Virus record (IMG/VR): IMGVR_UViG_3300031160_000001
Direction: 5' to 3' (one strand)
Length of the DNA stretch: 64,000 nt
Origin: a virus
This document shows positions 233-18,617 of this stretch, in pieces. Position 1 is the stretch's first letter; each line of letters opens with the position of its first letter. The position numbers and the translations under genes were made by a program. Below the pieces are notes generated by a model. It searched no databases. It was not told where the DNA came from and saw only the letters and a program-made list of their open reading frames with translations.

Positions 233-300
233 TCAGTCGGAACATTGAATAATATAACATACATAACAGATAAATTGCAAGTGGTAAATGGAGGTATTTT

Positions 301-633
301 ATGACAAACATATATAAGGGATTAATCAAATGCAAAAACTGTGGTAAGAACTATAAATTCAAAATGATGCGTAATAAACCAGTATATATATGTTCAGGAT
401 TTGCAAACTATGGAAAAGAATTTTGCACAAGTTTTTTTATTGAGGAAGAAGAAATAACTCATACTGTTACTAGACATTTAGAGATAAGGGGGGAAAAGAT
501 AGAGAAACCAATACAAGAATATATTGATAGAATAGAAGTAATAGGGGAAGGGTACAAAATTATATATAAAAATGGGGAAAATTCATTAATAAACATCGAA
601 AATGAAAATGGAATGATGTGTGTAAGATATTAA
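301..633 (+). CDS. Small stand-alone recombinase zinc-beta-ribbon domain protein
   Basis: GGAGG RBS; GLIKCKNCG...YICS...C pattern matches the zinc ribbon of large serine recombinases; no catalytic domain. Confidence 0.7.
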   Translation: MTNIYKGLIKCKNCGKNYKFKMMRNKPVYICSGFANYGKEFCTSFFIEEEEITHTVTRHLEIRGEKIEKPIQEYIDRIEVIGEGYKIIYKNGENSLINIENENGMMCVRY

Positions 634-681
634 CGATTAACCTCCCTCAAGAAAATAACCACTTTAGGACAACAAAGTGAT

Positions 682-721
682 TTTTCAAGGGGTTAGTTGA
701 GGGAGTCTAACCCCTTGAAAA
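682..721. repeat. 15-bp perfect inverted repeat between convergent genes (terminator or att-like site)
   Basis: ttttcaaggggttag (682-696) / ctaaccccttgaaaa (707-721); direct repeat ttaggacaaca at 664-674 and 743-753. Confidence 0.8.
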
Positions 722-766
722 CATTGACTTTTAGTAAGTTAATTAGGACAACATTTTTATAATATT

Positions 767-1138
767 TTACTTTGCAGAAAGCCTAAAAGTATTGGTCACA
801 ATTAACTTAACCAACACTTCAATTTGTGAATCGACCTCAATATCTATACTATGTAAAGACTCAAGAATATTTTCAATTGCAAACTCTTTTTTCTCTTCAG
901 GAGTCATATCATCTTGTTCTTGAATAAAAGAGAGGGTATTTTGAATAATTTCAATAGCTTTATCAATTCTTACATCGTCTTTACCATTCTTAGCTAAGAC
1001 TATTCGTAAAATCATCAAAAAATCATTAACCAAATCAATATCATCAACTCTGATCTTACCTTTTGATTTCAAGTAACCAAACAGATAGGACAATCCTAAA
1101 ACTAAAACTATAACACCAAATACAATAAGTAAATCCAT
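767..1138 (-). CDS. Putative holin (single N-terminal TM helix)
   Basis: Hydrophobic N-terminus followed by a charged tail; directly downstream of and overlapping the endolysin stop. Confidence 0.6.
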   Translation of the reverse strand: MDLLIVFGVIVLVLGLSYLFGYLKSKGKIRVDDIDLVNDFLMILRIVLAKNGKDDVRIDKAIEIIQNTLSFIQEQDDMTPEEKKEFAIENILESLHSIDIEVDSQIEVLVKLIVTNTFRLSAK

Positions 1139-2769
1139 TATTTTTTCATCTCCTTGTGTAATCTTGCTATCATTTCAAATACAAGCCAATTTGGTGCAGG
1201 TTCCTCAACCTTATCAATCCATTTTGCTTCTTCAATCAGGCCTTGACCTGCCAAATATTTTAAAGCATCTTTATTTGTCCAAACAGGTGTAGGATTAGGT
1301 TGTGTTGGTGTTTGAACTGGTTGTTCTTTGTTTGAATTAGATACCTCTTTGATTTTTAATACCATTCCACTATAAATAACATTCGAAGTTAAATTATTTA
1401 ATTTTTTAATATCATCCACTGTTACACCGTAAGCATTAGCAATTGCCCATAACGTATCTCCAGACTTTACAGTATGAGTCAAATATGCCTTGTTTTCAGG
1501 AGTTGTTTTTTCATTTGTTACAAAAACTAATACTGCATGGTGAGTAACTGGCTCTTTATTTCCTCGATTAATACCCAACGAACCTGTTTTATCAGCAATA
1601 ACGGAACTAGATCCACCATCACCGTTTAATGCCCATTCTACACCTTTATCAAGCATATAAAGTGCCATTTCTTCACAATTTAAACCTCTGTCATAAGGGG
1701 GATTCCTTCCATCTGCAACAGCAACAATTAAGTCACCATCTTTTGTAACACCAACAAAGGTACGTTGTGCTCTTACAGTATCAGCTTCATTCATAATATC
1801 ACTTAACACATTTTGCTTAACACGATATTCTTTATAAACAGCAGTAGGTTTACCATTAACAGGTTTTACGAGAATAGGCTTTGTTTGCACAAGCATTTCA
1901 TAACCATCGTTTATATTTAGGTTTTCACCAATAACAGCTTTTCCGTTTTTAAAACCAAAATTACCTCTAACTGATTCTCCACCAGATTTAATTACTTTGC
2001 CATCTATGACTAAATCGCTATAAATATATCCAGTAGAATCGAAGAAAGGAAAGTTAAAGCCATAATCAGCATTGTACTTTTTAACTAAATTACTGACTTT
2101 AGCTCCCTTTTCTTGAACAAATTTAAGTTTGTATTGTCCTGCTTTAAACCTTACTACTCGAACATCAGAAGCAGAAACACCATAATCTCCATCACAACGA
2201 TACAACTTTCCATTCTTGGTATATATACGTTCCTTTGCGACTTGGGGAATTGCCATTCCATTACCCTTCCTTTCTTGAATCAAAGATAAAACATCTTGAA
2301 TAAATTTGTTTCTATCGAATAATGTGTTATGAGGACAATTCTTACCTTTAACAACATAATGTGGCTTGATACGATCTGCCGTTTCCCAACCATGAAGCAT
2401 CATAATTTGAGCTGCAACATCTACAGCATTAATATAGGTTGCTATATCTAAAAGCTCCCCTTCTTCCACGGCTTCACATGCTATTTCTAGCCCAATCCAA
2501 TTACGATTATAATGTCCATTTGCCCCGTCTCCTGCATGCCAGCCATTTTCATTAAACGGCAAATGTTGTGTTGCACTGTCTTTGTCTACTGTTACATGCC
2601 AACTGACAATTCTGTCTTTAACATTCTCCATATACTCTGCATGCATTTCATCTCCCGCGCCATCTTTCCAATTATTCGTAGTATGAAACAATAGGCCAAC
2701 AGGTTTCATTGAATATCCTGGTCTATTTCTGTGTCCTTTTGGTAAGATTCTTTGTCTTATTTCTAACAA
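1138..2769 (-). CDS. Endolysin: N-acetylmuramoyl-L-alanine amidase (Amidase_2) + phosphodiester glycosidase (NAGPA-like) + LysM
   Basis: LLFHTT, SWHVTVD, GWHAGDG, IGLEIAC, PHY..KNCP amidase motifs; RTFVGVTKDG..VADGR..ALNGDGGSSS; HTVKSGDTLWAIA LysM; TTG start. Confidence 0.88.
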   Translation of the reverse strand: MLEIRQRILPKGHRNRPGYSMKPVGLLFHTTNNWKDGAGDEMHAEYMENVKDRIVSWHVTVDKDSATQHLPFNENGWHAGDGANGHYNRNWIGLEIACEAVEEGELLDIATYINAVDVAAQIMMLHGWETADRIKPHYVVKGKNCPHNTLFDRNKFIQDVLSLIQERKGNGMAIPQVAKERIYTKNGKLYRCDGDYGVSASDVRVVRFKAGQYKLKFVQEKGAKVSNLVKKYNADYGFNFPFFDSTGYIYSDLVIDGKVIKSGGESVRGNFGFKNGKAVIGENLNINDGYEMLVQTKPILVKPVNGKPTAVYKEYRVKQNVLSDIMNEADTVRAQRTFVGVTKDGDLIVAVADGRNPPYDRGLNCEEMALYMLDKGVEWALNGDGGSSSVIADKTGSLGINRGNKEPVTHHAVLVFVTNEKTTPENKAYLTHTVKSGDTLWAIANAYGVTVDDIKKLNNLTSNVIYSGMVLKIKEVSNSNKEQPVQTPTQPNPTPVWTNKDALKYLAGQGLIEEAKWIDKVEEPAPNWLVFEMIARLHKEMKK

Positions 2770-2853
2770 CTTTCAACCCCCCTTGATGACTTTTCTAAAA
2801 ATATATATAATTTACTTGGGACGATTCTCTCTTAATATGTACCAAGCAGGACA

Positions 2854-3342
2854 TTAAGAGTCTGATTCGTCCTTTTTACTTTGAATAATTTCTTGTTTGC
2901 GAGCTATTGAACGTTGCACTTTACTTTCTAATTCACTCTTTACCCATTCGATCATTTTATTTAATGCCCATTCAGGAATCCAAGTACCCCAACCTGCTCT
3001 AATTGCATTGGCTGTCATAGATTGGATAGTGTGAATAATTAATCCACCTGCTAACAATCCAAAAAATACAGGAGGTAACCCAAAAATCATATCTACAAAG
3101 TTTCCCCCCACAGGAAGCATAATCATAAAAAAAGTTCTAAAAACTCCATCTATCCCATAGTGAGAGCCATAGGTTTCATCTTTTCTCGATGCTCTAATAC
3201 CTGCTATCCAATCCAAACAAATAAAAAGAGCTAAAGCGAGCATTATATACAATGTAACCACACCATCACCATATAAAAAACTAAAGACGGGCGTTACAAT
3301 AGAACCTATAAACGCCGAAGTTATTTTTGCCCCACTTTCCAT
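2854..3342 (-). CDS. Phage holin (toxin-secretion/phage-lysis holin family)
   Basis: Three hydrophobic segments, CLDWIAGIRAS and IQSMTANAIRAG patterns, immediately upstream of the endolysin. Confidence 0.8.
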   Translation of the reverse strand: MESGAKITSAFIGSIVTPVFSFLYGDGVVTLYIMLALALFICLDWIAGIRASRKDETYGSHYGIDGVFRTFFMIMLPVGGNFVDMIFGLPPVFFGLLAGGLIIHTIQSMTANAIRAGWGTWIPEWALNKMIEWVKSELESKVQRSIARKQEIIQSKKDESDS

Positions 3343-3376
3343 AATAACACCTCTTTTAAATCATAAATAAAGAGTG

Positions 3377-3401
3377 AAGAGGTGGTATTACCACCTCTTC
3401 A
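3377..3401 (-). terminator. Hairpin terminator upstream of the lysis genes
   Basis: gaagaggtggt-att-accacctcttc inverted repeat followed by U-rich sequence on the minus strand. Confidence 0.6.
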
Positions 3402-3417
3402 AAATATAATGGTTGAC

Positions 3418-3567
3418 TTATTCTATTTCTATTTCTGTAATTAAATCTTCTCGATCTTTAGATATTAAATAATCATCAACAACTTCTTGTAAATCAGGGT
3501 ACTTTAATACGACTTGAACATAATCAAATTTTCCATCAATTATACGTTGTGCTAAATAGTTTCCCAT
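3418..3567 (-). CDS. Small phage protein (49 aa) typical of the tail-fibre/lysis boundary
   Basis: Translated by hand: MGNYLAQRIIDGKFDYVQVVLKYPDLQEVVDDYLISKDREDLITEIEIE; GGTGGTG RBS; below the ORF-track cutoff. Confidence 0.65.
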   Translation of the reverse strand: MGNYLAQRIIDGKFDYVQVVLKYPDLQEVVDDYLISKDREDLITEIEIE

Positions 3568-3568
3568 A

Positions 3569-3625
3569 TTATGCACCACCCATTAAAAGATCTGAAATGG
3601 CACCTGCTTTAATTACGTTCTCCAT
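3569..3625 (-). pseudogene. 18-aa micro-ORF, probable C-terminal remnant of a replaced gene
   Basis: MENVIKAGAISDLLMGGA with a strong GGAGGTG RBS, at the edge of the GC-rich cassette. Confidence 0.45.
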
Positions 3626-3654
3626 GATGGCACCTCCAAAAATATAGGCCCCGC

Positions 3655-3912
3655 CTATTCGGCGGAGCCTGCATCAGGCTCGGGCTCAGCAACCGTCGGC
3701 TCCTCGCCCCATACTGCGAAAATCGCAGACTTGTATGGCTCCGGCACTTCGTCCTGTACCTGCTGTCGTCCGGATGAGCTGTTTACATAGGCGCGACGCC
3801 ACGGATCGCCAATGGGATATTCGACTCCATCGACTTCGACGTACTGCTGTTTCTTAATACTCACCCCGTCCGGCGTAAGCATGTCCAGCGAATACCTTTC
3901 GATAATATCCAT
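3655..3912 (-). CDS. Tail-fibre-associated small protein (putative chaperone)
   Basis: 85-aa ORF directly after the tail fibre gene, with RBS. Confidence 0.6.
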   Translation of the reverse strand: MDIIERYSLDMLTPDGVSIKKQQYVEVDGVEYPIGDPWRRAYVNSSSGRQQVQDEVPEPYKSAIFAVWGEEPTVAEPEPDAGSAE

Positions 3913-3925
3913 ATCACTTCACCCC

Positions 3926-5122
3926 TTATATATAATACATCCCGTGAGCAGACAAACGGGTACTATTGGAAAACACATTATCCCCAACTGGAGCGCCGTC
4001 TGTATCATCCCCGTTTGCGTTCAAAACCATATAATTTGCACCGTACGCACCCTGAAGCGAAACTAATCTGTATTGAGACGCCAACGAAATGTTTTTGAAT
4101 TCCCCCACAGGAGTGAATGGTACCATTCCTCCGGCAATATTGTAAGGAAGTCCGTAAATGGCCCCCAATCCTGTAGCCGATCCTTTACTTGAAAGTTGGA
4201 TCTCGAATGCCCAGTAGACAACATTACCGATTCTTGTGTAACGCCCTACCCTCTTTGAGTATGTGATCCCCGAATTGTTTCCTCCGAACCGCAGGTCCGG
4301 CGTCCACGATCCGGTTTCATACGGGAGATTTCCGGCGTGCCAGATGTTGTTTGTCCCTAGCTGCGCTGCCACACCATCATTGGTCAGCTTAAGTAAATCT
4401 CTAATCCAATTTCCTGCTGCGTCGCGGAGTTGGACATAAAACGCACTGTTATCATGGAGGATATTGATTCTATTGTTTATGTCAGTGTCGATTAGCCAAA
4501 CGGCTGGCCACTTGGATTCTATAAACAAATCGCGCGTTAACGTCCCGCCGCTGCTAGTGATTAATTCAGCCCAAGATGTCCACGTGTCCCCGCCGTTGAA
4601 TGATGACCTTGTGTACACGCGATTTTCATAGGGGTCGCCTCCCCAAAACGCGTACCAGACTTGACGTATGTGTTGGCCATCCTGATTGTAAACGAGTAGC
4701 ACGCCCATCGTAGGGACCGGAGCATTTACAGCTCCCTCTGCAACGCCGTACATACCGGTGTCTTTTAAGTTATTTACATCCCCGTTATAGGGCGGTACTT
4801 TGCTGCGACCGTTATCTCCTGTCAACTTAAACCGTTGCCAGTTCACAGTTTCCGCCACATGTGCATCAAACTCCGTCTTAGTCGCCTGCTTTACGTTATC
4901 GACATTGCCTAATCCGACATCACCTTTTCCGAGTGATACCGCGCCAGTTTTCCCATTTACACTCGTAACGGGAGGCGCAGGAATTTGAGCTATCTTTTGA
5001 TCCGTATAATCCTTAGCATTTTGCTCCGCGATATCAGCCTTCGCTTGCGAGTCAACTACATTCTCTATTTGAACTAGTTGATTATCTTTAACTATTTTTG
5101 AGTCCTGCTTTATGATTGCCAT
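3926..5122 (-). CDS. Tail fibre / receptor-binding protein
   Basis: VTSVNGKTGAV repeat, knob-like segment (VNNLKDTGMY..NAPV..GVLLV), C-terminal YETGSWTP..GRYTRIGNVV domain typical of phage fibres. Confidence 0.8.
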   Translation of the reverse strand: MAIIKQDSKIVKDNQLVQIENVVDSQAKADIAEQNAKDYTDQKIAQIPAPPVTSVNGKTGAVSLGKGDVGLGNVDNVKQATKTEFDAHVAETVNWQRFKLTGDNGRSKVPPYNGDVNNLKDTGMYGVAEGAVNAPVPTMGVLLVYNQDGQHIRQVWYAFWGGDPYENRVYTRSSFNGGDTWTSWAELITSSGGTLTRDLFIESKWPAVWLIDTDINNRINILHDNSAFYVQLRDAAGNWIRDLLKLTNDGVAAQLGTNNIWHAGNLPYETGSWTPDLRFGGNNSGITYSKRVGRYTRIGNVVYWAFEIQLSSKGSATGLGAIYGLPYNIAGGMVPFTPVGEFKNISLASQYRLVSLQGAYGANYMVLNANGDDTDGAPVGDNVFSNSTRLSAHGMYYI

Positions 5123-5176
5123 TAAACCCCACCTTTCTTTTCTTGGGCTAATTTATCTTGTATTATCGAAACTTCC

Positions 5177-5194
5177 TATAAGTAAAAAGAGAGC
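5177..5194 (-). terminator. Intrinsic terminator after the XerD-like gene
   Basis: gagagcc-cgaa-ggctctc hairpin with a U-run on the minus strand. Confidence 0.7.
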
Positions 5195-5204
5195 CCGAAG
5201 GCTC

Positions 5205-6044
5205 TCAAAAATATTTTCGATATATTTCGCGCCGACGTTCTCCGCTCAGCTGAGCATAGAGTTTTGTCGTATCGATCTTGGCGTGTCCGAGAAATGATTG
5301 TATGACCTCGAGCGGAGCGCCGTTGTTAAGCAAGTGTGTCGCATATGAGTGTCTTAGACTGTGTGGGAAAACATTGACCTCAATGCCTGCGCGTTTGGCG
5401 ATACGCTTGATAATGTATCGCATCTGAGCGATTGACATCCGCCTCGGAGCTCGTTCGGTAACGAACAACGCGATGTCTGTGTCTCGTCTACTCCGGAGAT
5501 AACGTCTGAGTAGTATAGCGCACCTTGTAGTAAAATAAACCTCGCGTTCCTTATCCCCTTTGCCCCGGACAATGATACTGCGCGATTCAAAGTTTATTGA
5601 GTTTCGGTTAAGCTGCACAATCTCTCCGATCCGGCAACCAGTCGCGTAAAAGATCTCGATGAGTGCTGCTTCAAGGTACGAGGTTGCAGCGACTCGCAGT
5701 TCCTCGATCACATCCTCCGATAACGCCTTCGGGATACGATGCCCCTGCTTCGGTTCCTTAAGCTTCGCGGCTGGATTGCGCTGTGTCAGTCCTTCATCAT
5801 GCGCATATCGGAATAGCGACTTGAGAAAACGCACACGATGACCGATGCTCGCTGGCTTCAGGTGCCGCGTCGATTCAACAAGATAGCCTTTTAGCATTTC
5901 GTAGGTGATGGTTTGCACATCGACATCGCCGATATGCCGGACTAGAAGTTGCAACTGGAGATGATAGGCTTTCAGGGTATGCGAAGAATACCCCTCTAGC
6001 CTCTTGTCTGCCTCGTATGCAGACCAGAGTGAGGATAGTAACAT
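5205..6044 (-). CDS. XerC/XerD-like tyrosine recombinase (279 aa)
   Basis: ATGCRIGE, VRGKGDKER, FPHSLRHSYATHLL, LGHAKIDTTKLY: all catalytic residues present; start moved to ATG 6044 because of an AAGGAG RBS. Confidence 0.93.
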   Translation of the reverse strand: MLLSSLWSAYEADKRLEGYSSHTLKAYHLQLQLLVRHIGDVDVQTITYEMLKGYLVESTRHLKPASIGHRVRFLKSLFRYAHDEGLTQRNPAAKLKEPKQGHRIPKALSEDVIEELRVAATSYLEAALIEIFYATGCRIGEIVQLNRNSINFESRSIIVRGKGDKEREVYFTTRCAILLRRYLRSRRDTDIALFVTERAPRRMSIAQMRYIIKRIAKRAGIEVNVFPHSLRHSYATHLLNNGAPLEVIQSFLGHAKIDTTKLYAQLSGERRREIYRKYF

Positions 6045-6086
6045 GATATAACCAACTCCTTGGCATTGGTATTTGCCCTTGGGATT

Positions 6087-6154
6087 GTGGTACAGGCAAG
6101 CGCCCAAGGAACGCCTTTCATCCGAGTGATCAGTTCGGACTAGCCTGCATCCAC
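6087..6154 (-). ncRNA. Candidate structured RNA (three-way junction) in the recombinase leader
   Basis: P1 UGCAGGC/GCCUGUA, P2 UCCGA/UCGGA, P3 AGGCGU/GCGCUU; lies just downstream of an extended -10. Confidence 0.55.
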
Positions 6155-6155
6155 A

Positions 6156-6164
6156 ATTATACCA
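6156..6164 (-). promoter_or_regulatory. Extended -10 promoter for the recombinase
   Basis: TGGTATAAT (TG-n-TATAAT) on the minus strand. Confidence 0.65.
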
Positions 6165-6215
6165 TGCGCTTCCTCAGTTTTCCATAATCTAGAACTTCGT
6201 TAGTTTAATTACAAA

Positions 6216-7292
6216 TCACGGAATAAAAGCGGAGCGGAACCCGAGTGTCGGGCTCACGACCGAGCGAGTGTAGCCCAAGTTGAGCGCGAAAACGCCCGCA
6301 CTGGAGCCATTGCGCCAGTAGCCGCCGCGAGCCGCCAGTCGTTCTCCCCCGGCAATAAACCAGTACGCATCGTTCCCGTAATCCGCAGAACCTGAGCTGC
6401 TAGTAGTAGCCGGAATCGCAAGTGCTGACCAGTCCATGCTCGGCGTATTCGGGATCGCACCTTCGCGCATCGTAAGAATACGGTTTCCGCTGCTCATGCC
6501 GGTAGTAATATTCACACCTGTATTTACCCAATCCGATTCATTATCTGTGAAATTGTTGTCAATCATCACATAGGCGGCGCCGTCAATGATTTTCAGTCCT
6601 TGCACCCATTCCCATACGTTACCGTTCAAGTCGTAAATCCCTGCCGGTGTGTTATCGTGTGCCCAAGAGGCGGGTCCCGATCCGGTAGCGACACGGCCCG
6701 TCTTGCCAGCCTCAGAATCAAAATATGTTTCTTTGCCTCGTTCATACGAGGCGGAAATGTCTGCGCCATAGTTATTGTTGCCTCGTGGTTGGAAACCGTT
6801 AGCTTTGCACCAGAGGGCAATCACAGCCCACTCGGCATTGGTCATAAGGTGCCAGCCTGCTCCTTTCGCCGTGCAGTAGCCCTTTGCCGCATCGTAATTG
6901 ATAGAAGCCCTCGGGTCTTGCATCGGCAAGCTAATTGCGCGTTCACTGCCTGATGCACCAACTACAATGTTCTGATATTTAGAGATAAAAATTTCTGGTT
7001 TAATCACGCCATTCACGATAAACGCAGGATGCGGTGTAGTTGGTGCGCCCGGTATAAGCTCGTCAAGCGTTTTAACTGTAAACTTGACCATGATACTAGG
7101 GTTGCCAAAGTCATCATATAGTACGGTGTTTTTACCAAAGGTTATATCTTCAAGACGTTTTTGCCAGTCACGTTGTATATCTTCGTTCGTCGTTACACCG
7201 TTCGAAAAAAAGTCTCTCGTGATCTGCAGTTCAAGCTCTCTTGCTTTGACTGCAATCTCGCGCGAAAAATACTTTCCGCTTACATACTTCAT
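6216..7292 (-). CDS. Mtd-like / FGE-sulfatase C-type-lectin-fold protein (DGR target type), copy 1
   Basis: FISKYQN, GWHLMTNAEWAVIAL, DLNGNVWEW and C-terminal RGGYW...LGFRSAFIP, the architecture of DGR target proteins. Confidence 0.85.
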   Translation of the reverse strand: MKYVSGKYFSREIAVKARELELQITRDFFSNGVTTNEDIQRDWQKRLEDITFGKNTVLYDDFGNPSIMVKFTVKTLDELIPGAPTTPHPAFIVNGVIKPEIFISKYQNIVVGASGSERAISLPMQDPRASINYDAAKGYCTAKGAGWHLMTNAEWAVIALWCKANGFQPRGNNNYGADISASYERGKETYFDSEAGKTGRVATGSGPASWAHDNTPAGIYDLNGNVWEWVQGLKIIDGAAYVMIDNNFTDNESDWVNTGVNITTGMSSGNRILTMREGAIPNTPSMDWSALAIPATTSSSGSADYGNDAYWFIAGGERLAARGGYWRNGSSAGVFALNLGYTRSVVSPTLGFRSAFIP

Positions 7293-7340
7293 ACGATTTC
7301 ACCGCCTTCGATAGTAGTAACTTCCAACACGGGAACAAAA

Positions 7341-8405
7341 TCACGGAATAAAAGCGGAGCGGAAGCCAACGTTCGAACGCAAGTTCCACCGAGGGTCGTT
7401 CAGGTTGAGCGCGAACACCCCGGCAGCAGCGACACCCTGCCAGTCGCCGCCGCGAATCGGCAGCCGTTCTCCCGCTACATTAAACCAATATCCGTCGTTA
7501 CCGTAATCCGCAGAACCTGAGCTGCTGGTAGTGGCCGGAATCGCAAGTGCTGACCAGTCCATGCTCGGCGTATTTGGGATAGCACCTTCGCGCATCGTCA
7601 GAATTCGATGCCCGCTGGTCATGCCGGCAGTGATATTCACCCCGGTATTTACCCATGCCGATTCGGGATCAGCAAAGTTGTTGTCGATCATGACATGAGC
7701 AATACTGTCGATGATTTTCAGTCCTTGTACCCACTCCCAGACATTTCCGCACAAATCAGCGATACCGTCTAGGGTTCCATCGTGGTTCCAGGATGCTGGG
7801 CCGGAACTGGTCAGAGTGCGATGATAACTACCGGAGGTCGTCTTCACGCCGCGTTCATAAGGTGCGTCAGAAGAAGCCCCGTTACTTGTGTTTCCTCGGG
7901 GCATTTTGCCTACCTTTCGGCACCACAACGCAATGGCCGCCCATTCGGCGTTGGTCATGAGGTGCCAGCCTGTACCTTTGTTAGCACAGTATTGACGAGC
8001 ATTATCAAAACTAATTGAAGCCCGCGGGTCTGTCATCGGCAAGCTAATTGCGCGTTCACTGCCTGATGCACCAACCACAATATTTTGGTACTTTGATATA
8101 AAAATCTCTGGTTTCATTTTGCCGTTCACAATAAAAGCAGGATGCGGACTGGTCGGCGCACCTGGTATAAGCTCGTCAAGTGTTTTAACTGTAAACTTTA
8201 CCATCACGCTAGGATTTCCTAAGTCGTCATAGATAACTGTATTTTTTCCGAAAGTCAAGTCTTCAAGACGTTTTTGCCAGTCTCGCTGTGTATCAACACT
8301 CGTCGTAGGCCCTTTCGTGAAAAAGTCGCGAGCAAGCTGCATCTCTAACTCACGGCCTTTTACAGCGATCTCGCGCGAAAAATACTTACCGTTCACATAT
8401 TTCAT
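7341..8405 (-). CDS. Mtd-like / FGE-sulfatase C-type-lectin-fold protein (DGR target type), copy 2
   Basis: Tandem paralogue; same motifs, C-terminal RGGDW...VGFRSAFIP; last 24 nt identical to copy 1. Confidence 0.85.
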   Translation of the reverse strand: MKYVNGKYFSREIAVKGRELEMQLARDFFTKGPTTSVDTQRDWQKRLEDLTFGKNTVIYDDLGNPSVMVKFTVKTLDELIPGAPTSPHPAFIVNGKMKPEIFISKYQNIVVGASGSERAISLPMTDPRASISFDNARQYCANKGTGWHLMTNAEWAAIALWCRKVGKMPRGNTSNGASSDAPYERGVKTTSGSYHRTLTSSGPASWNHDGTLDGIADLCGNVWEWVQGLKIIDSIAHVMIDNNFADPESAWVNTGVNITAGMTSGHRILTMREGAIPNTPSMDWSALAIPATTSSSGSADYGNDGYWFNVAGERLPIRGGDWQGVAAAGVFALNLNDPRWNLRSNVGFRSAFIP

Positions 8406-8617
8406 GTTTCTTCGCCGCCTTCATTGGTCTCTGGTTCAGGTACAGGAAAAAGCTCCGAAAAATTCCTCCGCAAGTCAGCTTCAAAGATATGCACATACCG
8501 TTCTGCCGTTTGTCTATCTCCTTTTACTTCTGTTTCTCCTTGCAAGTTTACGCCTTCGTCAGAAAAATCGACTTTTATTCTTGTCACGCCGTTCAACTCT
8601 TCAAACAAAGCAATCAT
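8402..8617 (-). CDS. Hypothetical protein (tail-tip module)
   Basis: 71-aa ORF with 4-bp overlaps to both neighbours. Confidence 0.6.
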   Translation of the reverse strand: MIALFEELNGVTRIKVDFSDEGVNLQGETEVKGDRQTAERYVHIFEADLRRNFSELFPVPEPETNEGGEET

Positions 8618-9012
8618 ATCTCCATCACCGCCACCTCTACTGAGTTTGCACTTTCAGATACCGCAAAAATCTGCACGACTACGCTAGGATTAAAGTTAAA
8701 TTCAATGATCCCTCCCGGTTCGACCGGGAATCCAGTGGCTGCTGTAACTGTTGACGATCCTATGCGGATCCGATACTGTGTTGACTCGTTTTTGACGATG
8801 AGATACCGTCTGTTTTCTTTTCGCGATGCACCTGCGAAAATTTCCGCCGCTGTTGCCGTCACAGTTTTAACACCTGTCACAGGTGCGGCATCAACTGTAT
8901 CTATACTCCCCGTTAGTTTGACACCCTCTGAATACGTCCCGTCCCCATTATCTATCATTTTGATTTTAATAGAGTCGTTACCGACCCCGTATCTTGTGCT
9001 TGTATCAGCCAT
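8614..9012 (-). CDS. Hypothetical beta-rich virion-associated protein
   Basis: 132 aa, RBS GAGGTG, operonic; contains the KLTGS motif. Confidence 0.6.
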   Translation of the reverse strand: MADTSTRYGVGNDSIKIKMIDNGDGTYSEGVKLTGSIDTVDAAPVTGVKTVTATAAEIFAGASRKENRRYLIVKNESTQYRIRIGSSTVTAATGFPVEPGGIIEFNFNPSVVVQIFAVSESANSVEVAVMEI

Positions 9013-9023
9013 TATTAATCACC

Positions 9024-9224
9024 TCAAATTGGTAAACTTTTCAGTGGATCTGGGCAATTTTCAACAACCCAATCACCACCGATAAACTCGATGTTTTGAT
9101 CAGTAGCGTTATATCGACTTATTAGACCAAACATAGTCATTTCCGGCTCATCTTCTGTTGGAAGAAAATCATCATAAATCCCCTGCAAAATGGATATGAT
9201 TTGTTGTTTTCGTTGTTCATCCAT
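9024..9224 (-). CDS. Hypothetical protein
   Basis: 66 aa, GGAGGT RBS, operonic. Confidence 0.55.
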   Translation of the reverse strand: MDEQRKQQIISILQGIYDDFLPTEDEPEMTMFGLISRYNATDQNIEFIGGDWVVENCPDPLKSLPI

Positions 9225-9228
9225 AGTG

Positions 9229-9786
9229 TTACCTCCATACTCTCACAACTCTGATTGTAACCGTGGCTGTTTCTGAACTGTAGTTTACAACCTTAATCTG
9301 TTCATTCGATGCTGGGATTGCTACGCTTTTAGCCTCTTGTAAAGACGTGGGTTCTGTCAATCCAACATTACTTGCGAAACTAAAACCCAAAAATAACGAG
9401 ATGCATGGGTTAGATAAGTTAGAATATGCCGTTGTAACATTTTCCCTTTTAGGGTATACGCAATTCAAACTACTATAGCCGTGTGCAACATTCCAAGCTG
9501 CACCAGATCTGAACGACCAAGGCTGTTTATCACAGTTGATAAGGACATATGTTTCGTCTTCTCCCTTACCACCAATGCTTACAGGTGTGGTCTGACCTCC
9601 AGACGATGGCACAGACTGTGCATTAACAAGTGTTTCAACCTCTACTCTAGCAACCCTCTTAACCGGAATTGCTTGTGTATCTTGCACACTACTCCCCGTT
9701 AGTTCAACTTCTCCCTTAACTTTCAATGCCTTGCTTACATTATCTTTAAGCGTTCCTATAATTTCTGATAAACTAAATAAAGCCAT
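9229..9786 (-). CDS. Hypothetical virion-associated protein
   Basis: 185 aa, GAGGAG RBS; contains the ELTGS motif. Confidence 0.6.
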   Translation of the reverse strand: MALFSLSEIIGTLKDNVSKALKVKGEVELTGSSVQDTQAIPVKRVARVEVETLVNAQSVPSSGGQTTPVSIGGKGEDETYVLINCDKQPWSFRSGAAWNVAHGYSSLNCVYPKRENVTTAYSNLSNPCISLFLGFSFASNVGLTEPTSLQEAKSVAIPASNEQIKVVNYSSETATVTIRVVRVWR

Positions 9787-9803
9787 ATATTTATCTCACT
9801 CCT

Positions 9804-10253
9804 CTAAAAAATAACATTCTCTGTGACTTCTGGGAAAAAATAGTTCCTTTTGGAGTCTATTCGAACAGCATCAACTTCCGCAAGACCGTGCTGAATCCCA
9901 AACAACACTTCGAAAAAATCCTCAACTGCACTCTCTTCTGTGAATGCCACATCCACAACTTCAATATCTTCTACTTCTTGGTCACTATAAGTTGACCAGG
10001 CTTCGATAAACTCACCAACACATAAATATCCATTGCTCATTAGTCTTACTTGATCCACTTCCAGAAGCACAGATTCGATTCCAAGAAATAATTGAAGTAG
10101 CGAAGATAATTCATCTTCGTCGTTAATTAAAACATTCTCGTCAATCATCAGATTTTCATCAACCAAAGACTCTTCGTCAAATCCAAATTGAATTTCAACA
10201 ATCTCTCCAGCTAAAGAAACGGTCTTGTCTTTGTTTATTCTTTTTATGATCAT
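9804..10253 (-). CDS. Hypothetical acidic protein with two internal repeats
   Basis: 149 aa, overlaps the upstream stop; two halves F(D/T)EES...LFxGI...L.EVD.VR. Confidence 0.6.
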   Translation of the reverse strand: MIIKRINKDKTVSLAGEIVEIQFGFDEESLVDENLMIDENVLINDEDELSSLLQLFLGIESVLLEVDQVRLMSNGYLCVGEFIEAWSTYSDQEVEDIEVVDVAFTEESAVEDFFEVLFGIQHGLAEVDAVRIDSKRNYFFPEVTENVIF

Positions 10254-11905
10254 GTCAATACCTCAAAATCAATACTATCTAAATCTTTGTTATGTACGAT
10301 TTGAAATCTATTACCTATAGGAATAGGAATGCTACCGTCTCTAGGAATACTTGCGTTTTTGGCATTCTGCTCCGCTAAGTCGGCTTTGCTTTGTGCTCCT
10401 TCTGGTGTCTCTGCGCCCACATCTTCGTAAGTTAATTGAACATTACCCTGAGCATCTGGAGACTTGTTATTAACACTTGATACAGATCCTAATCCATCAA
10501 GCCCCTTTTGGGCTACCAAAGTCCAAAATTGCCCCTCTACTGGTGTCACACCCTGACAATCTTGCATACAACGCCAAGTTGAGCCGTTGTATCTTACATG
10601 ATTGTTTTTAACATATTGAGTAGACGGATTGTATTCTCCTAAATGTACAGATGTGTTCACCAAATTCTGTGCATTATTCGCCGCTGAATTCGCATTATTT
10701 ATAGCTGTCGTTGTATTTATCTGACGCTCATCTTCTTGTGATTGTCTTATTGCTTCATTATCCTGTCTCGTTTGTTCTGCAGATTGACGATTCGCTTCAT
10801 TATTTTGCCTTGTTAATTCATTAGTTTGTCTTATACTTTCATTAGATTCTCTAGTGTCTTCATTAGATTCTCTAAGAGTTTCATTTGCTTGACGAGTAGA
10901 TTCTTGTGATTGTCTAGTTGCTTCGTTTGATTCTCTTACGCTTTCCTGAGAGATTCTTAATTGCTCATTAGACTCCCTATTACTTTCAGCAGCAGCACGA
11001 TTTGATTCAGCAGATTGACGATTATTCTCATTGGATATCCTTGTATTTTCATTCAGTTTTCTAGTAGCCTCTTCTATCAAACGATCTGATTCAGCCAATT
11101 CACGATAAAGTTCTGCTTGAATCCTATTATACTCATTGTCATTGCGTTGCACTTCGTTTTCTTCTCTGATACTTTCAGCTTCAGATCGTGCTTCTTCGGC
11201 TTGATTAATTAATTGAATAGTCTCATCAATATTTATTATTTCTTTCCAATAATTAGAGTTGGTAAGAGGAATACCCGTACTCGAAACAACTGCTTGATAT
11301 AAAATGGTTTTATCAGAGTTTGATACCACATCACCAGCATTATAGCTACTTGCTGTATTATATGTTCCTCTCCATCTAAAACCTGAAACTAATACCCAAT
11401 AATTAGGATTAGAAGGAGAATTACCTTGGGTTGATTGTTTGCATAAATACAATGATCCACCATAGGAAACTAAATTAAACTTTTGATAAATGGTTTCTGA
11501 ATTATATTCCCCTATATAATAAAAGTTGTTTGCACCCTCAGTAAGATCGCTTAAAAGCTGAACAACTTCACCATTGTTTTCTATAGTATAAATACGTGAA
11601 GCAGGGATAAAAACCAATCCTCTACCAAAAAAATGGACTTGGACTGTTTTACCTTCTTCAGATGGATTAAAAAATACATGACCAGATAGATAATTAACGT
11701 AAAACTGATTACTGTTTAATCCTTGAGCGATATTTAAGACTTCAGAGTAGCCGGTAATCTGAACCCTTTTGCGCTCTACAGGAAGTTCAGATAATAAAAT
11801 CTTTCCATTAATAATCTTATATGTCTCAGTATATTCTACAAATTCATCTCCATCTAATCCACTTCGTAGTTCATATATCAAAGGGTTATTATTATACATA
11901 ACCAT
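10250..11905 (-). CDS. Tail fibre / baseplate protein with carbohydrate-binding-like repeats and a long heptad coiled coil
   Basis: YIGEYN..Y....VSYGGSLY repeats, R..NE/R..AE 7-aa repeats, SVSSVNNKSPD..GNV motif; position after the tail spike. Confidence 0.7.
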   Translation of the reverse strand: MVMYNNNPLIYELRSGLDGDEFVEYTETYKIINGKILLSELPVERKRVQITGYSEVLNIAQGLNSNQFYVNYLSGHVFFNPSEEGKTVQVHFFGRGLVFIPASRIYTIENNGEVVQLLSDLTEGANNFYYIGEYNSETIYQKFNLVSYGGSLYLCKQSTQGNSPSNPNYWVLVSGFRWRGTYNTASSYNAGDVVSNSDKTILYQAVVSSTGIPLTNSNYWKEIINIDETIQLINQAEEARSEAESIREENEVQRNDNEYNRIQAELYRELAESDRLIEEATRKLNENTRISNENNRQSAESNRAAAESNRESNEQLRISQESVRESNEATRQSQESTRQANETLRESNEDTRESNESIRQTNELTRQNNEANRQSAEQTRQDNEAIRQSQEDERQINTTTAINNANSAANNAQNLVNTSVHLGEYNPSTQYVKNNHVRYNGSTWRCMQDCQGVTPVEGQFWTLVAQKGLDGLGSVSSVNNKSPDAQGNVQLTYEDVGAETPEGAQSKADLAEQNAKNASIPRDGSIPIPIGNRFQIVHNKDLDSIDFEVLT

Positions 11906-11912
11906 TAAACCC

Positions 11913-12064
11913 TCTGCTACTCAAAATATGGACAAATATCCATATCGAGAAAAGTTCCTGCTTCAACGTGTTCTGCCTCGCATCATGCTACTACAGGTTC
12001 TACAACACTCCACAGGCGTTAATTCCCGACTAAGCCATCGGTACATACGTATAATCGCTTGTTT
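11913..12064 (-). ncRNA. Probable TnpB omegaRNA scaffold (IS607 right end)
   Basis: Position between the tnpB stop and the right end, where TnpB guide scaffolds are encoded; structure not computed. Confidence 0.6.
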
Positions 12065-13234
12065 TTATGCGATTTTATACGTCTTAGCATTTTTCAAATT
12101 AATCGCAGCATTCACGTCTCGATCCACCACATTTTCGCAATTATCGCAAACAAAAATTCGATCTGATAACTTTAGATTACTTTTTTTATACCCACAACAT
12201 GAACATAATTTACTGGATGGATAGAAACGATCAACAATTCTCAATTCAATTCCATGAACCTTACATTTTGCTTCAAGTTTGGATCGGAATTGATGAAAAC
12301 CTTGTTGTGCGATCGCTTTTGATAAATGCTTATTTTTCATCATGCCTCTAACATTCAAATCTTCAATTGTTATAAAGCGTGGTTTTTGCTTTATAATCAT
12401 ATTTATCGTCTGATTAATATGATTTTCTCGAATGTTAGAGAGTCGTTGATGAAGTTTCTGCACCTTCAGGATTTGTTTTTGGATATTTTGTCCAGTAGCA
12501 GTTTCCTCCTTCCTATTTTTATTTTTCTTTGCTTCCTCATATTTTCTCGAAAGTTTTCTTTGTTGACGTTTTAATGATTTCTCAAGTTTCCTTACTTTGG
12601 TTGTTTTATTTATATTTTTGATTTGTTGATCACTATTTGATAGAGTTGCAAATTTTCCAACTCCAAGATCAATTCCAATACCATCATTAAAATTTTCAAA
12701 TTTTTTTTGTTCATTGTCTTCAATTAAAACAGATACATAATAACGTCCTGCTTTTTGTGATATGGTTCCGCTTCTAATGATTGCTTTTGTTGGAATATAA
12801 CCATATTCTTTTAATCTTACCCATCCCAATGTAGGAATTTTAATTCGATGACGTTCGCATTTGATAATAGTTTTCGCATCGTTTTTTACAAAATACATTT
12901 TTACGTCTTGATTCTTTTTCTTTTTAAACTTAGGAAATCCTGATTGTCCTTTAAAGAATTGTTTAAATGCTCGCTCAGCATTCATAATCGACTGTTTAGC
13001 GGCTTTTGCATAAACTTGTTTGATCCACTGATAATCTGGATTGTTTGGAATGAATTCATTATTTAACCACTTGGAAAAATCCATTCCTGATACAAAATGT
13101 TTTTCCTTTTCATATACTTCTTTATTATGCGCGATATAGAAATTATAAACATATCTGCAAACACCAATTGTTTGATTAAATATTTTCTTCTGTGTTTCGT
13201 TCAATTGAATTTCTGTCTTGTACGATCTTAGCAA
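12065..13234 (-). CDS. tnpB: TnpB RNA-guided nuclease
   Basis: RuvC motifs GIDLG, IEDLNV, DRDVNAAIN and zinc finger CSCC..CDNC all intact; likely TTG start at 13234 after GGAGG. Confidence 0.93.
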   Translation of the reverse strand: MLRSYKTEIQLNETQKKIFNQTIGVCRYVYNFYIAHNKEVYEKEKHFVSGMDFSKWLNNEFIPNNPDYQWIKQVYAKAAKQSIMNAERAFKQFFKGQSGFPKFKKKKNQDVKMYFVKNDAKTIIKCERHRIKIPTLGWVRLKEYGYIPTKAIIRSGTISQKAGRYYVSVLIEDNEQKKFENFNDGIGIDLGVGKFATLSNSDQQIKNINKTTKVRKLEKSLKRQQRKLSRKYEEAKKNKNRKEETATGQNIQKQILKVQKLHQRLSNIRENHINQTINMIIKQKPRFITIEDLNVRGMMKNKHLSKAIAQQGFHQFRSKLEAKCKVHGIELRIVDRFYPSSKLCSCCGYKKSNLKLSDRIFVCDNCENVVDRDVNAAINLKNAKTYKIA

Positions 13235-13826
13235 TATCTTCATCCTCCAGAATTTTATTTTTATACTTTCTAAGCCCGTAGATTTTACAAGAGAAAACAT
13301 GAATAATACTTATCAAATCTTGCACTAATTCCTCTTGCGGTGAAAGTTTTTCATTATTTACTACAATTAGTTCTACTCCATTAGACTCTAAAAATTTCTT
13401 AAACCAATCGTAACCAAAGCGGATAAATCTATCTTTATGAGATACTAAGATTTTTGAAATATGACCTAACATACATTCTTCAAGTAGTTTATTCCACTTT
13501 TTTCGATTGTAATTAAGGCCGCTTCCAATATCCTCAAATATCTCATCAACAATAATCCCTTTTGCATTAGCATATTGTTTAAGAAATTCTACCTGATTAT
13601 TTAAATCATCTTTTTGATTTGAGGTAGATACTCTTGTATAAATAACAACTTTTCCGTTCGGATGACTTTCACCAATATAATCTACGTATTGTTTATGAGT
13701 ATAATATCTTCTTCCTGAAGGATGACGATTGGCAATTAACTTTTTCTCACGATCCCATCGTTGAAGTGTTTTTACAGAAACGCCGATCATTTCTGCAAAT
13801 TCTTGTGGCTTATAGTGATTACTCAT
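13176..13826 (-). CDS. tnpA: IS607 transposase (MerR-like HTH + serine recombinase)
   Basis: EFAEMIGVSVKTLQRWD, IYTRVSTSNQKDDL, DIGSGLNYNRK, QDLISIIHVFSCKIYG; start at ATG 13826. Confidence 0.95.
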   Translation of the reverse strand: MSNHYKPQEFAEMIGVSVKTLQRWDREKKLIANRHPSGRRYYTHKQYVDYIGESHPNGKVVIYTRVSTSNQKDDLNNQVEFLKQYANAKGIIVDEIFEDIGSGLNYNRKKWNKLLEECMLGHISKILVSHKDRFIRFGYDWFKKFLESNGVELIVVNNEKLSPQEELVQDLISIIHVFSCKIYGLRKYKNKILEDEDIAKIVQDRNSIERNTEENI

Positions 13827-13864
13827 AGATTTCATTCCTTTCTGTAATAATAATCCATGAGTAT

Positions 13865-13893
13865 AATTTATCACATATAAACACATTTGTCAA
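13865..13893 (-). promoter_or_regulatory. sigmaA-type promoter in the IS607 left end
   Basis: TTGACA-17 bp-TAAATT with TG extension. Confidence 0.65.
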
Positions 13894-13938
13894 TATTAAT
13901 GGTAATTATTTCGTTCCTCCATTCATTGAATTTTATAT

Positions 13939-15045
13939 TTATGGAATTGAATTTAAACTATTCACAATTCCATTCAAATAAGAAGCATATATAATACCTC
14001 CACTTGATACCATCGCAGGTGGTGGTGTTGGTGGTGACATTGCTGATATAGCTGTAACTGCTTGGTTAAACATCGAAGCTAAAAAATAATTACCTGTAGT
14101 TGCTGTAGTAAAACTAAAAGCCCCTAATCCTTTATATATCCGAAACTGATTTATTCTAGCAGTAAATGAATTCCACTCAGAAGCGGTTAAGGAAAAAGGT
14201 TGACCTGATGTTTTTGGAGTAGTCCAACTATAATTATTGGGACGCGTTCCACCCACCTGAACTTGAACCACACCTTCGGATACACTTTCAAGCCAAGTGT
14301 TATTGACATAAAGCCTTGATCTCGCCTTAAAAATAAAGGACTGACCAGATTGAAGACCCGTCCAGGTTAATGTAGAAGTCCCAGAACTAGCAGTTTTATT
14401 ATCTATATATACATTATTATTTGTATATCTATCTACTACTACCTCGTCATAATTACCTGACATACCACTGATTGAAATAGTAATGGAGTTAGATGTAGAC
14501 GTTCCAGTAATATTTGGAGTTCTCGGTGCAACTGTCGCAGGTTGCTCAATTGTATAATTAGAACTACCAGCGGAATTTTCCGATCTTACGGAAACATAAT
14601 ATGTAACACCATACTGCAAACCTGTAACCGTATAAGCGGTAGAAGATGTATTATATGTAGTAGTATAGTTATCATAACCTCTTCTAACTCTCAAAGTATA
14701 TGAAGTAGCACCACTAACAACAGGCCAATATAATCTATAACCACCTTCAACTCGATAATCAACGTAAGGTGGATGCCAAGGAGGTGATGGTGGATTGGGG
14801 GCAGGAGGATTGTCATTGGCCAATGTGGTTTCGGTAATAGAGCCATCTAATAACCATGTTCCACTTGACCAAAAATAACATCTAATTGTATATGTAGTAT
14901 TAGGCGTCAAATTAGTAAAAGTATGCGAACTCGAAGTTGTATATGATTCAATACCATTGATTTCCCATAAATAATTGCTTCTACCAGTATTGGTTGTACT
15001 AACTGATATACTTGTTGATGTTTTGTTAGTTACATAAACCGACAA
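13939..15045 (-). CDS. Fibronectin type III domain tail/baseplate protein
   Basis: FTNLTPNTTYTIR, VTGLQYGVTYYVSVRSEN, WTGLQSGQSFIFK Fn3 repeats; TTG start with GGAGG RBS. Confidence 0.78.
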   Translation of the reverse strand: MSVYVTNKTSTSISVSTTNTGRSNYLWEINGIESYTTSSSHTFTNLTPNTTYTIRCYFWSSGTWLLDGSITETTLANDNPPAPNPPSPPWHPPYVDYRVEGGYRLYWPVVSGATSYTLRVRRGYDNYTTTYNTSSTAYTVTGLQYGVTYYVSVRSENSAGSSNYTIEQPATVAPRTPNITGTSTSNSITISISGMSGNYDEVVVDRYTNNNVYIDNKTASSGTSTLTWTGLQSGQSFIFKARSRLYVNNTWLESVSEGVVQVQVGGTRPNNYSWTTPKTSGQPFSLTASEWNSFTARINQFRIYKGLGAFSFTTATTGNYFLASMFNQAVTAISAMSPPTPPPAMVSSGGIIYASYLNGIVNSLNSIP

Positions 15046-15073
15046 TTAATCCTCCACCTCTATTACAAAAATA

Positions 15074-15102: not shown

Positions 15103-15122
15103 ATTAATAGGGGTGATAATCT

Positions 15123-18606: not shown

Positions 18607-18617
18607 ATCTTCGCCTC

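Follow-up and report, generated by a model that had tools for sequence, protein, structure and literature searches.

Two tandem genes of a diversity-generating-retroelement target family in a prophage genome without the retroelement

Layout of the locus

The window, i.e. the whole stretch of 64,000 nucleotides analysed here (IMG/VR record IMGVR_UViG_3300031160_000001), had been described from its letters alone as carrying, at 6216-8405, two tandem target genes of the kind used by diversity-generating retroelements (DGRs); two open reading frames are found exactly there, both on the minus strand, and this observation stands. The locus comprises the following features:

3600-9000, no strand: high-GC island of ~5.4 kb
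5205-6107, minus strand: XerC/D-like tyrosine recombinase (PF00589, E=1e-36), at the site of the avd-TR-RT cassette of relatives
6108-6215, minus strand: 108-nt spacer after gene A, the site of the GC hairpin, avd and TR in relatives, none of which is present here
6216-7292, minus strand: gene A (open reading frame call, 358 aa), paralog of gene B
6225-6338, minus strand: variable-region-like 114 nt of gene A
6371-6473, minus strand: tract of ~100 nt shortly before the variable region of gene A, sharing 95-97% identity with 7496-7598 in gene B
7341-8405, minus strand: gene B (354 aa), predicted receptor-binding protein of FGE/C-type-lectin fold and paralog of the DGR-type target
7350-7463, minus strand: variable-region-like 114 nt of gene B, the segment compared with the L006 template below
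8402-9012, minus strand: pair of small genes upstream of gene B (71 aa and 132 aa), found in synteny with the target in 13-14 relatives

The island (48.5% GC over 3500-9020) lies in a phage genome of 33-34% GC (33.4%), and the host has 57% GC. Its left edge is sharp, at ~3600, where GC rises from 30% to 57%, and its right edge, at ~9000, is gradual. Besides genes A and B, it contains the recombinase, a tail-fibre-like gene (3926-5122) and the two small genes; the latter were matched by tblastn at 58-66% identity just upstream of the targets of L015, L018, L027, L052 and L058, and a 4-nt overlap joins the start of gene B to the stop of the 71-aa gene. The longest open reading frame of the recombinase has 300 aa (279 aa in the public gene call). 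The contrast in GC content between phage, island and host (34%, 48.5%, 57%) points to capture of the module as a route of host adaptation. A 15-nt repeat at 8904 and 9690 was considered as the graft point of the island but is unsupported (flanking GC 43.6% and 47.6%). A second high-GC island, at 80-84.5 kb of the genome, showed no DGR parts, only YopX, Phage_ABA_S and DUF7694 genes.

Protein family and fold

The proteins encoded by genes A and B are 75% identical. Both match the Pfam family FGE-sulfatase (PF03781; E=1.6e-9 for gene B) and the PHROGs family phrog_2889 at ~E-100 (E=6e-101 for gene B). In a phmmer search, gene A matched TaqVP of Thermus aquaticus (PDB 5VF4) with E=9e-49 over residues 45-249 and the C-terminal RGG.W...GFR segment, and its AF2 model (pLDDT 80) was aligned to TaqVP by Foldseek with a TM of 0.70; TvpA and Mtd variants were also among the fold matches of the model. 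The FGE-sulfatase/CLec fold with a variable C-terminal RGG.W...GFR segment is thus found in both proteins, and judged from sequence and model, A and B are members of a real DGR target family (phrog_2889/TaqVP-like).

Homologs of A and B are labelled 'nonheme iron enzyme' in public annotation. Catalysis by FGE needs a pair of cysteines in the C-terminal segment. Genes A and B share the Pfam domain and the fold with the FGE and SUMF1-EgtB-PvdO enzymes (PF03781), but the fold matches to these enzymes are weak (TM ~0.3) and the catalytic pair is absent: residues 315-358 contain no cysteine in either protein, the C-terminal segment RGGYWRNGSSAGVFALNLGYTRSVVSPTLGFRSAF being cysteine-free. The enzyme label is very likely a misnomer for this protein family.

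Relatives with and without a retroelement

A DGR RT was identified just downstream of the target in 46 of 80 related viral loci. It is of the IGNLTSQ..YMDD type, lies 0.5-1.8 kb downstream of the target and belongs to an avd-TR-RT cassette; in ~30 TR/VR pairs the mismatches are confined to template adenines, i.e. homologs of A and B are demonstrably DGR targets. Members linked to a DGR occur in the sister clade (L004-L006) and in most major clades of the family tree; the family as a whole has more than 5000 members. The templates of L004 and L006 were missed by a first blastn search and recovered with a local aligner. About a quarter of the assessable relatives also have no RT nearby, so that the RT-less state of A and B is ordinary for the family. 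A megablast search of positions 1-20000 of the window against the phage collection yielded no usable relative; the sole match, of 100 nt at 79% identity to Pseudomonas phage Bise, falls within the conserved lectin core.

A remote second target (L074), which has the hairpin, lies 26 kb from its RT in the closest relative prophage and serves as a positive control for remote targeting. It agrees with the template that serves it at every non-adenine site save one base at the 3' end of the repeat, and this base also differs in that template's own VR; genes A and B, in contrast, differ from each other at 19 non-adenine sites.

Adenine-site signature in the variable tips

The last 41 codons of A and B align without gaps, with the invariant and variable codons that the preliminary description had listed. 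The invariant codons are CGC GGC GGC, TGG, TTC GCG CTC AAC and TTC CGC TCC GCT TTT ATT CCG TGA, and the variable pairs are TAC/GAC, AAT/GGT, GGC/AAC, TAC/GAC and GTC/AAC. In codons of AAY origin the third base is kept, and A and B differ in the first two bases only.

For a test of the signature, both tips were aligned to 26 real template repeats of relatives, an adenine site being a position with A in at least half of the templates. By this measure, which uses templates of the family, the two genes differ at 16/24 adenine sites and at 19/102 other sites (Fisher p=1e-5). Compared with the template of L005, the tip of gene A has mismatches at 14/23 adenine and 15/91 non-adenine sites (p=5e-5), and it resembles the VR of L005 at 13 of 16 diagnostic non-adenine sites. 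The tip of gene B, compared with the template of L006, has mismatches at 12/24 adenine and 7/90 non-adenine sites (p=1e-5) and follows that template at 14 of 16 diagnostic non-adenine sites, wobble positions included. On these alignments the adenine-site bias is a DGR signature, and the pattern goes beyond chance. The codons with template adenines are also those that contact the ligand, however, and part of the enrichment could be due to ordinary diversifying selection.

The preliminary description had read the wobble differences as a sign of drift or of different templates, and the resemblance of gene B to the L006 template and of gene A to the L005 VR bears out the latter. The non-adenine differences make it very unlikely that both tips came from a single template: such a template would have to carry adenines at the 19 differing sites, where they are rare or lacking in the 26 family templates. 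The target signal is still partly present, since both tips retain a 3' end (GCTTTT...) identical to the VR ends of relatives.

Selection and history of the gene bodies

The ratio dN/dS is ~0.7 in the variable region and 0.08-0.09 over most of the rest of the gene; judged from these values, both gene bodies are under purifying selection. The bodies are old and diverged (dS ~0.9-1.6). With a dS of 0.45-0.66, the tips fall below most of the remaining gene, which is what one would expect had they been rewritten from related templates once the bodies had separated. The tract at 6371-6473, which encodes a loop modelled with low confidence (pLDDT 30-42), is probably a recombination or gene-conversion tract. 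The tree places A and B as sisters (SH-aLRT 99), which suggested a recent tandem duplication; this was rejected on account of the mosaic codons 161-220, in which A and B share ~50% nucleotide identity, while A and L004 share 72-88%. On the aligned sequences, A and B are recombination mosaics.

These data bear on the explanation that A and B are plain duplicated adhesins, shaped by point mutation and selection in a lineage in which a DGR was never involved. The old, diverged bodies, the many non-adenine differences between the tips, the lack of a retroelement and the diversifying selection to which ligand-contact codons are subject anyway would all be compatible with it. We nevertheless regard it as very unlikely, given that DGR-linked members occur in L004-L006, the sister clade, and in most of the family's major clades, that the tip of gene B equals the L006 template at 14/16 diagnostic sites, even at wobble positions, that changes in AAY-type codons are limited to the first two bases, and that dS is lower in the tips than in most of the gene.

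Absence of the retroelement in the phage and its host

The phage genome is complete at 148,616 bp, as a Logan contig of the excised circle (L085) joins positions 1 and 148616 via a 14-nt overlap. No RVT_1 hit was obtained in these 148.6 kb. A tblastn search of the genome with ~40 DGR RTs of relatives revealed no RT, the matches being translations of TRs that hit the VRs only, and 43 Avd proteins of relatives found nothing at E<0.1. Searched with either VR, the genome yields that VR and its paralog alone (E<=10), without a third repeat. The earlier statement that no RT, avd or TR is visible in 64 kb therefore extends to the whole 148,616-bp genome. No catalogued RNA was detected in the spacer or the leader of the recombinase when 3000-9500 was scanned with Rfam (E<=1).

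A search of the VRs against the phage and host genomes for a TR near an RT had been proposed as a check and found none. The host MAG, a member of the Paenibacillaceae, was assigned by 100% identity to the kinase that flanks the phage. It contains RTs of the group II intron type only, no DGR-type RT and no target homolog, and no TR-like DNA was found in it (best VR match 42 nt, 81% identical, E=0.016); this MAG does not carry the prophage and is possibly incomplete, and a DGR may sit in the true host strain or a co-resident prophage.

The absence of a strong hairpin after the VR was likewise confirmed, as no perfect stem of at least 5 bp occurs within 117 nt past the stop codon of A or B. In L004-L006 and most other RT-linked relatives a GC stem of 7-11 bp with a GRNA tetraloop lies 13-49 nt after the stop. 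A hairpin was scored by a strict criterion in 26 of 42 RT-linked relatives, 8 of the 42 have none by the same perfect-stem criterion as A and B, and five RT-less relatives have kept it. Across relatives, RT and hairpin are not significantly associated by the strict criterion (p=0.12), for which reason absence of the hairpin is taken as supportive but not as proof.

Among contigs from four metagenome runs no difference was seen in either VR (run X5 was shown to cover the tip of gene B only), and each protein occurs as a single sequence, on 7 (A) and 6 (B) contigs of a collection of 15 billion proteins; assembled contigs hide rare variants, so that low-level diversification is possible, and the samples probably stem from one campaign, some perhaps being the source of the window itself, which derives from phyllosphere metagenomes.

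The preliminary description had offered two alternatives, that the targets are either fossilised or served in trans. This reading is supported, and the evidence favours fossilisation: RT, TR and Avd are absent from a complete genome, the host MAG has no DGR-type RT or TR-like DNA, the hairpin is missing, the tips differ at 19 non-adenine sites whereas L074 agrees with its template, and the contigs of the samples show no variation. Service in trans would make A and B live targets of a DGR in the host chromosome, in another prophage or in a co-infecting phage. Remote targeting is real in the family, as L074 demonstrates, the hairpin persists in five RT-less relatives, and the 3' end GCTTTT of the L004-L006 VRs is retained in both tips. 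Against this stand the complete genome without RT, TR or Avd, a host MAG with group II intron-type RTs only and no TR-like DNA, the lack of a hairpin after either gene, sequences of A and B that are identical across all assemblies, and the 19 non-adenine differences, which are ill-suited to one shared template; we consider active targeting in trans highly improbable.

The neighbouring tyrosine recombinase

A further possibility is that the block is a receptor cassette which the tyrosine recombinase transfers from phage to phage or rearranges so as to switch the tip in use; variation based on recombination would then have replaced variation based on a DGR. The XerC/D-like recombinase follows directly after gene A, a homologous recombinase (35% identical) occupies the same place in the RT-less relative L027, and a C-terminal fragment of one lies right after the RT of L052; the block is a sharp high-GC island, the integration of the phage is handled by a separate large serine recombinase, and one X5 contig departs at 6209, just outside gene A, into unrelated DNA. 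However, recombinases are common in phages, and none of the segments is flanked by convincing repeats, inverted or direct. No joints were found in the four runs; an invertible or shufflon-type switch, looked for as inverted repeats around any segment and as contig joints, was not detected although the recombinase is present. The loose end at 6209 was also considered as an inversion junction and rejected, since neither the genome nor the loci of relatives contain a match to it, and so it does not reflect an internal inversion. Moreover, A and B are complete, co-oriented and have their own starts, so that no inversion is needed to express either. We regard such a cassette as unlikely. The recombinase occupies the place of the DGR cassette both here and in L027.

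Proposed history of genes A and B

Taken together, genes A and B are likely to be receptor-binding proteins whose tips were once written by a DGR and are now fixed, the avd-TR-RT cassette and the hairpin having gone. They would be tail-tip adhesins of an SPbeta-like prophage in a Paenibacillaceae bacterium, and their C-terminal, C-type-lectin ligand-binding sites would have been written in the past by DGRs; the loss of the avd-TR-RT cassette and of the target hairpin downstream would have left them as the fixed sequences seen now. The high-GC module of ~5.4 kb that carries them might have been acquired by horizontal transfer from higher-GC phages, the presumed donors being of the type whose closest homologs still carry DGRs. 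The tips of A and B presumably derive from two different template lineages, and the phage may now use the two genes as two static, alternative receptor specificities.

A more specific version, which we put forward only tentatively and think doubtful, is that the island is a transferable module, a low-GC SPbeta-like phage having captured two DGR-matured tips with the retroelement left behind; the recombinase may have carried the module. The tips would then have matured in DGR-bearing phages of the same host lineage of 57% GC. If such capture were general, diversity made by DGRs would spread as frozen cassettes to phages that never encoded a DGR, and surveys centred on the RT would miss a large share of DGR-shaped genes.

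Significance and comparison with known systems

The DGR reading of A and B breaks no new ground in itself. The two genes appear to display a DGR target after loss of the retroelement, intact under purifying selection, with the adenine signature kept, the hairpin gone and no variation among the assembled contigs, and they offer an internal test, in that two tips of one template must agree at non-adenine sites. Within the literature searched we found no paper on orphan or fossil DGR targets as such; surveys of DGRs start from the RT, so that orphan targets like A and B go uncounted. A and B are also the best candidates for the host-recognition determinants of this phage.

TaqVP (Thermus aquaticus; 5VF4), a variable protein reported to belong to a DGR (Handa, Shaw & Ghosh 2019, PMC6328139), has the same fold and domain order as A and B, with the VR at the C-terminus of an FGE-type C-type-lectin fold. 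Unlike TaqVP, A and B are phage-borne and in tandem, lie in a genome without a retroelement and have an N-terminal extension of ~40 aa. The archetype, Mtd of Bordetella phage BPP-1 (Guo et al. 2011, PMC3240598), is, as proposed for A and B, a phage receptor-binding protein with a C-type-lectin site made from AAY-derived codons. Homing in BPP-1 is efficient only with a hairpin downstream of the VR, and transplanting the IMH together with this hairpin suffices to make a new gene a target (PMC3240598); by this model A and B, which have no hairpin, RT or template, would not be competent targets. The closest comparison is with L004-L006, Bacillota prophages from IMG/VR (e.g. IMGVR_UViG_2517572150_000001), whose targets are 72-74% identical to gene A and share with A and B the C-terminal motif, the 3' end of the VR and the position in the tail/lysis module. 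Their order is target, GC hairpin (GGGCCTGC GATA GCAGGCCC), avd, TR and RT, with mismatches at adenines only and even a remote second target, whereas A and B are followed by a tyrosine recombinase in place of hairpin, avd, TR and RT, none of which is present.

Genes A and B belong to a family of DGR targets

The two tandem genes recognized in the preliminary description as resembling targets of a diversity-generating retroelement (DGR) were confirmed as members of a DGR target family. Separated by 48 nt, they encode proteins that are 75% identical:

6216-7292, minus strand: gene A, ORF of 358 aa
7341-8405, minus strand: gene B, ORF of 354 aa

Both match Pfam FGE-sulfatase and the phage family phrog_2889 (E about 1e-100), and gene A matches PDB 5VF4 (E=9e-49), i.e., TaqVP, the DGR variable protein of Thermus aquaticus (PMC6328139). 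An AlphaFold2 model of gene A, built from 48 homologs (pLDDT 80, pTM 0.83), aligned with TaqVP at TM 0.70 and showed weaker fold matches to FGE enzymes, Treponema TvpA and Bordetella Mtd. FGE catalysis requires a Cys pair. The C-terminal segments of A and B contain no cysteine, which argues that the two proteins, as predicted from sequence, are lectin-type binders rather than FGE enzymes. This phage adhesin family has more than 5000 members at E<=1e-30, with Bacillota predominating, and its public name is 'SUMF1/EgtB/PvdO family nonheme iron enzyme' (homologs P0006, P0014, P0037 and others), a label that is probably wrong for its members.

A scan of viral contigs yielded 80 loci encoding homologs. 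A reverse transcriptase (RT) with the DGR signature (IGNLTSQ...YMDD) is located 0.5-1.8 kb downstream in 46 of them, and in about 30 a template repeat (TR) lies between target and RT, with mismatches to the 3' end of the target only at template adenines. TR mismatches to the variable region (VR), at adenines and elsewhere, are 14+1 in L006, 12+1 in L004 and 11+0 in L012. L004-L006, the closest relatives (72-74% identity to gene A), share the gene order target, avd, TR, RT, holin, endolysin. Given these RTs and adenine-only mismatches, the family is a bona fide DGR target family.

Adenine signature, origin and selection

The codon pattern described earlier was recovered in the nucleotide alignment of A and B: no gaps occur in the final 41 codons, where unchanged codons are interleaved with variable pairs, including TAC/GAC, GGC/AAC, GTC/AAC and AAT/GGT. 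About 100 nt ahead of this stretch are 95-97% identical, and the last 26 nt show no difference. When template-adenine positions were defined by adenine in 50% or more of the 26 family templates aligned with both C-terminal, VR-like tips, A and B differed at 16 of 24 such positions versus 19 of 102 others (p=1e-5). Comparisons with single templates gave similar enrichments, with 12/24 adenine-site versus 7/90 other mismatches between gene B and the L006 template, and 14/23 versus 15/91 between gene A and the L005 template. Sixteen non-adenine sites separate the L005 and L006 templates; gene B has the L006 state at 14 of these, and gene A looks like the L005 VR at such diagnostic sites, suggesting that the tips descend from different template lineages, one of the two origins (the other being drift) proposed earlier for their wobble differences. 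The L005 DGR itself (8829-8939 versus 9397-9507) shows non-adenine TR/VR mismatches, 7-11 according to the aligned span, several of which recur in the gene A tip; the explanation is either template drift after the most recent homing or decay of this DGR.

Between A and B, dN/dS rises from 0.08-0.09 across most of the gene body, indicating purifying selection on both genes, to about 0.7 in the tips. Tip dS is 0.45-0.66, below the 0.9-1.6 of the body; the tips were probably rewritten later than the divergence of the bodies, yet long ago. A and B are sisters in the family tree (SH-aLRT 99), and over codons 161-220 their nucleotide identity is about 50%, versus 72-88% between A and L004: both genes are mosaics.

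Contigs of four phyllosphere metagenome runs over 5200-9000, in which rare variants are invisible, showed zero base differences in either tip, with coverage in run X5 shown for the gene B tip only, and broke solely at k-mers common to both paralogs. The samples behind the identical tips are probably related to each other. Among 15 billion proteins searched, A and B are each the sole member of their own 90% cluster (on 7 and 6 contigs, respectively), and the nearest other protein is 74% identical.

The retroelement is missing from a complete prophage

The absence of RT, avd and TR, reported for 64 kb, extends to the whole 148,616-bp record, in which we found no match to RVT_1, no Avd, and nothing with the RTs of about 40 relatives. 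A search with the VRs for a template elsewhere revealed no third copy of the repeat in the phage record. The record is rated 83% complete by CheckV; however, the Logan contig L085 runs from 6449 to 1 and then directly through 148616-139380, across a 14-nt overlap (TGGGAGAGCACCAT) present at both record ends (window 1-14 and 148603-148616 of the full record). The record is thus a complete prophage, the CheckV value is too low, and L085 is the excised circle. Contigs L084 and L087 extend beyond position 1 into host genes for an SLH protein, a two-component system and an ABC transporter, and represent the integrated form. The host is an uncultured Paenibacillaceae MAG (CALGAO01), which contains a kinase with 100% identity to the one in the host flank; in this MAG, RT matches had only group II intron-type motifs (PQGGPLSPLLANI...YADD) and searches found neither TR-like DNA nor a target homolog. 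At 301-633, a 110-aa ORF retains no part of a large serine recombinase other than the zinc-ribbon domain and, in the excised form, adjoins a full-length serine recombinase of 573 aa; duplication or splitting of a recombinase at the attachment junction may have produced it.

A high-GC island with a tyrosine recombinase

GC content is 33.9% in the phage, 56-57% in the host flank (L084:11150-20372, L090) and 48.5% in a segment at about 3600-9000, whose left edge is sharp. The gap between phage and host flank is large and unusual for a temperate phage. The island contains, in order:

first, minus strand: two small genes, syntenic with the target in 13-14 relatives
after the small genes, minus strand: gene B, then gene A
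after gene A, minus strand: XerC/D-like tyrosine recombinase, in the exact place of the relatives' avd-TR-RT
after the recombinase, minus strand: 398-aa fibre-like gene
last, minus strand: 85-aa gene

Beyond it, holin and endolysin lie in low-GC DNA. For integration the phage has its own large serine recombinase, encoded at the end of the genome, and a YomF_N domain points to an SPbeta-like backbone. A and B were probably acquired inside this foreign-GC module.

In the RT-less locus L027 (5643-6470), a tyrosine recombinase likewise directly follows the target, replacing avd-TR-RT, and in L052 (3533-3766) a 78-aa C-terminal recombinase fragment, 41% identical, is found immediately past the RT stop codon; such recombinases occur repeatedly beside this target family. 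The adjacent recombinase could act as a switch, but a search for repeats or joints in keeping with such a role found none, and this is a minor alternative. Across 3000-9500, including the recombinase leader (6087-6164), Rfam gave no family at E<=1.

An X5 contig has 1-nt deletions at 6187 and 6189 and departs at 6209, just outside the gene A stop, into 78 nt of unrelated DNA (AAGCCGAGTTAGATCGG...) with no match in the phage genome or the fetched loci, which suggests a related element whose recombinase unit has another neighbour. A perfect 15-nt direct repeat (8904-8918 / 9690-9704) encodes LTGS about 30 codons into two adjacent tail genes; it was rejected as an island boundary, since the flanking GC does not mark one. 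A second high-GC island outside the window (80000-84500 of the full record; 44-49% GC) carries the small accessory genes YopX, Phage_ABA_S and DUF7694, and no DGR parts were found in it.

Hairpins, service in trans and the status of A and B

In BPP-1, a hairpin structure is required for efficient homing (Guo et al., PMC3240598). L004-L006 and 26 of 42 RT-linked relatives (strict criterion) carry this structure, with a GC stem of 7-11 bp and a GRNA tetraloop (GATA, GGTA, GACA, GAAA) 13-49 nt past the stop codon. The 117 nt past the stops of A and B contain no perfect stem of at least 5 bp, in agreement with the earlier impression that a strong post-VR hairpin is lacking. Since 8 RT-linked relatives are also hairpin-less by the same detector, this is support rather than proof. 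Among relatives with sufficient downstream sequence, 42 have an RT and 14 have none in the fetched flank; the RT-less loci are dispersed across the family tree, and 9 of the 14 also lack the hairpin.

The preliminary description had left open whether A and B are fossilised or served in trans. A live remote target exists in the prophage of L004 (L004:9383-9497, on contig IMGVR_UViG_2517572150_000001). There, a highly divergent additional homolog, L074 (8781-8960), with only 41% identity to gene A, lies some 26 kb away from the RT. L074 is equipped with a GC hairpin of its own (loop GAGA), and its tip departs from the L004 template at 9 adenines and at the terminal repeat base, where the template also departs from its own VR. 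The L004 template thus acts on both of these strongly diverged paralogs across 26 kb, and L074 serves as the positive control for the in-trans scenario. A and B, by contrast, disagree with one another at 19 non-adenine sites, and a shared template would need adenines at sites with few or none among the 26 family templates. We therefore favour the fossilised state, which we regard as likely, and A and B add two orphans to an already known family of DGR variable proteins.
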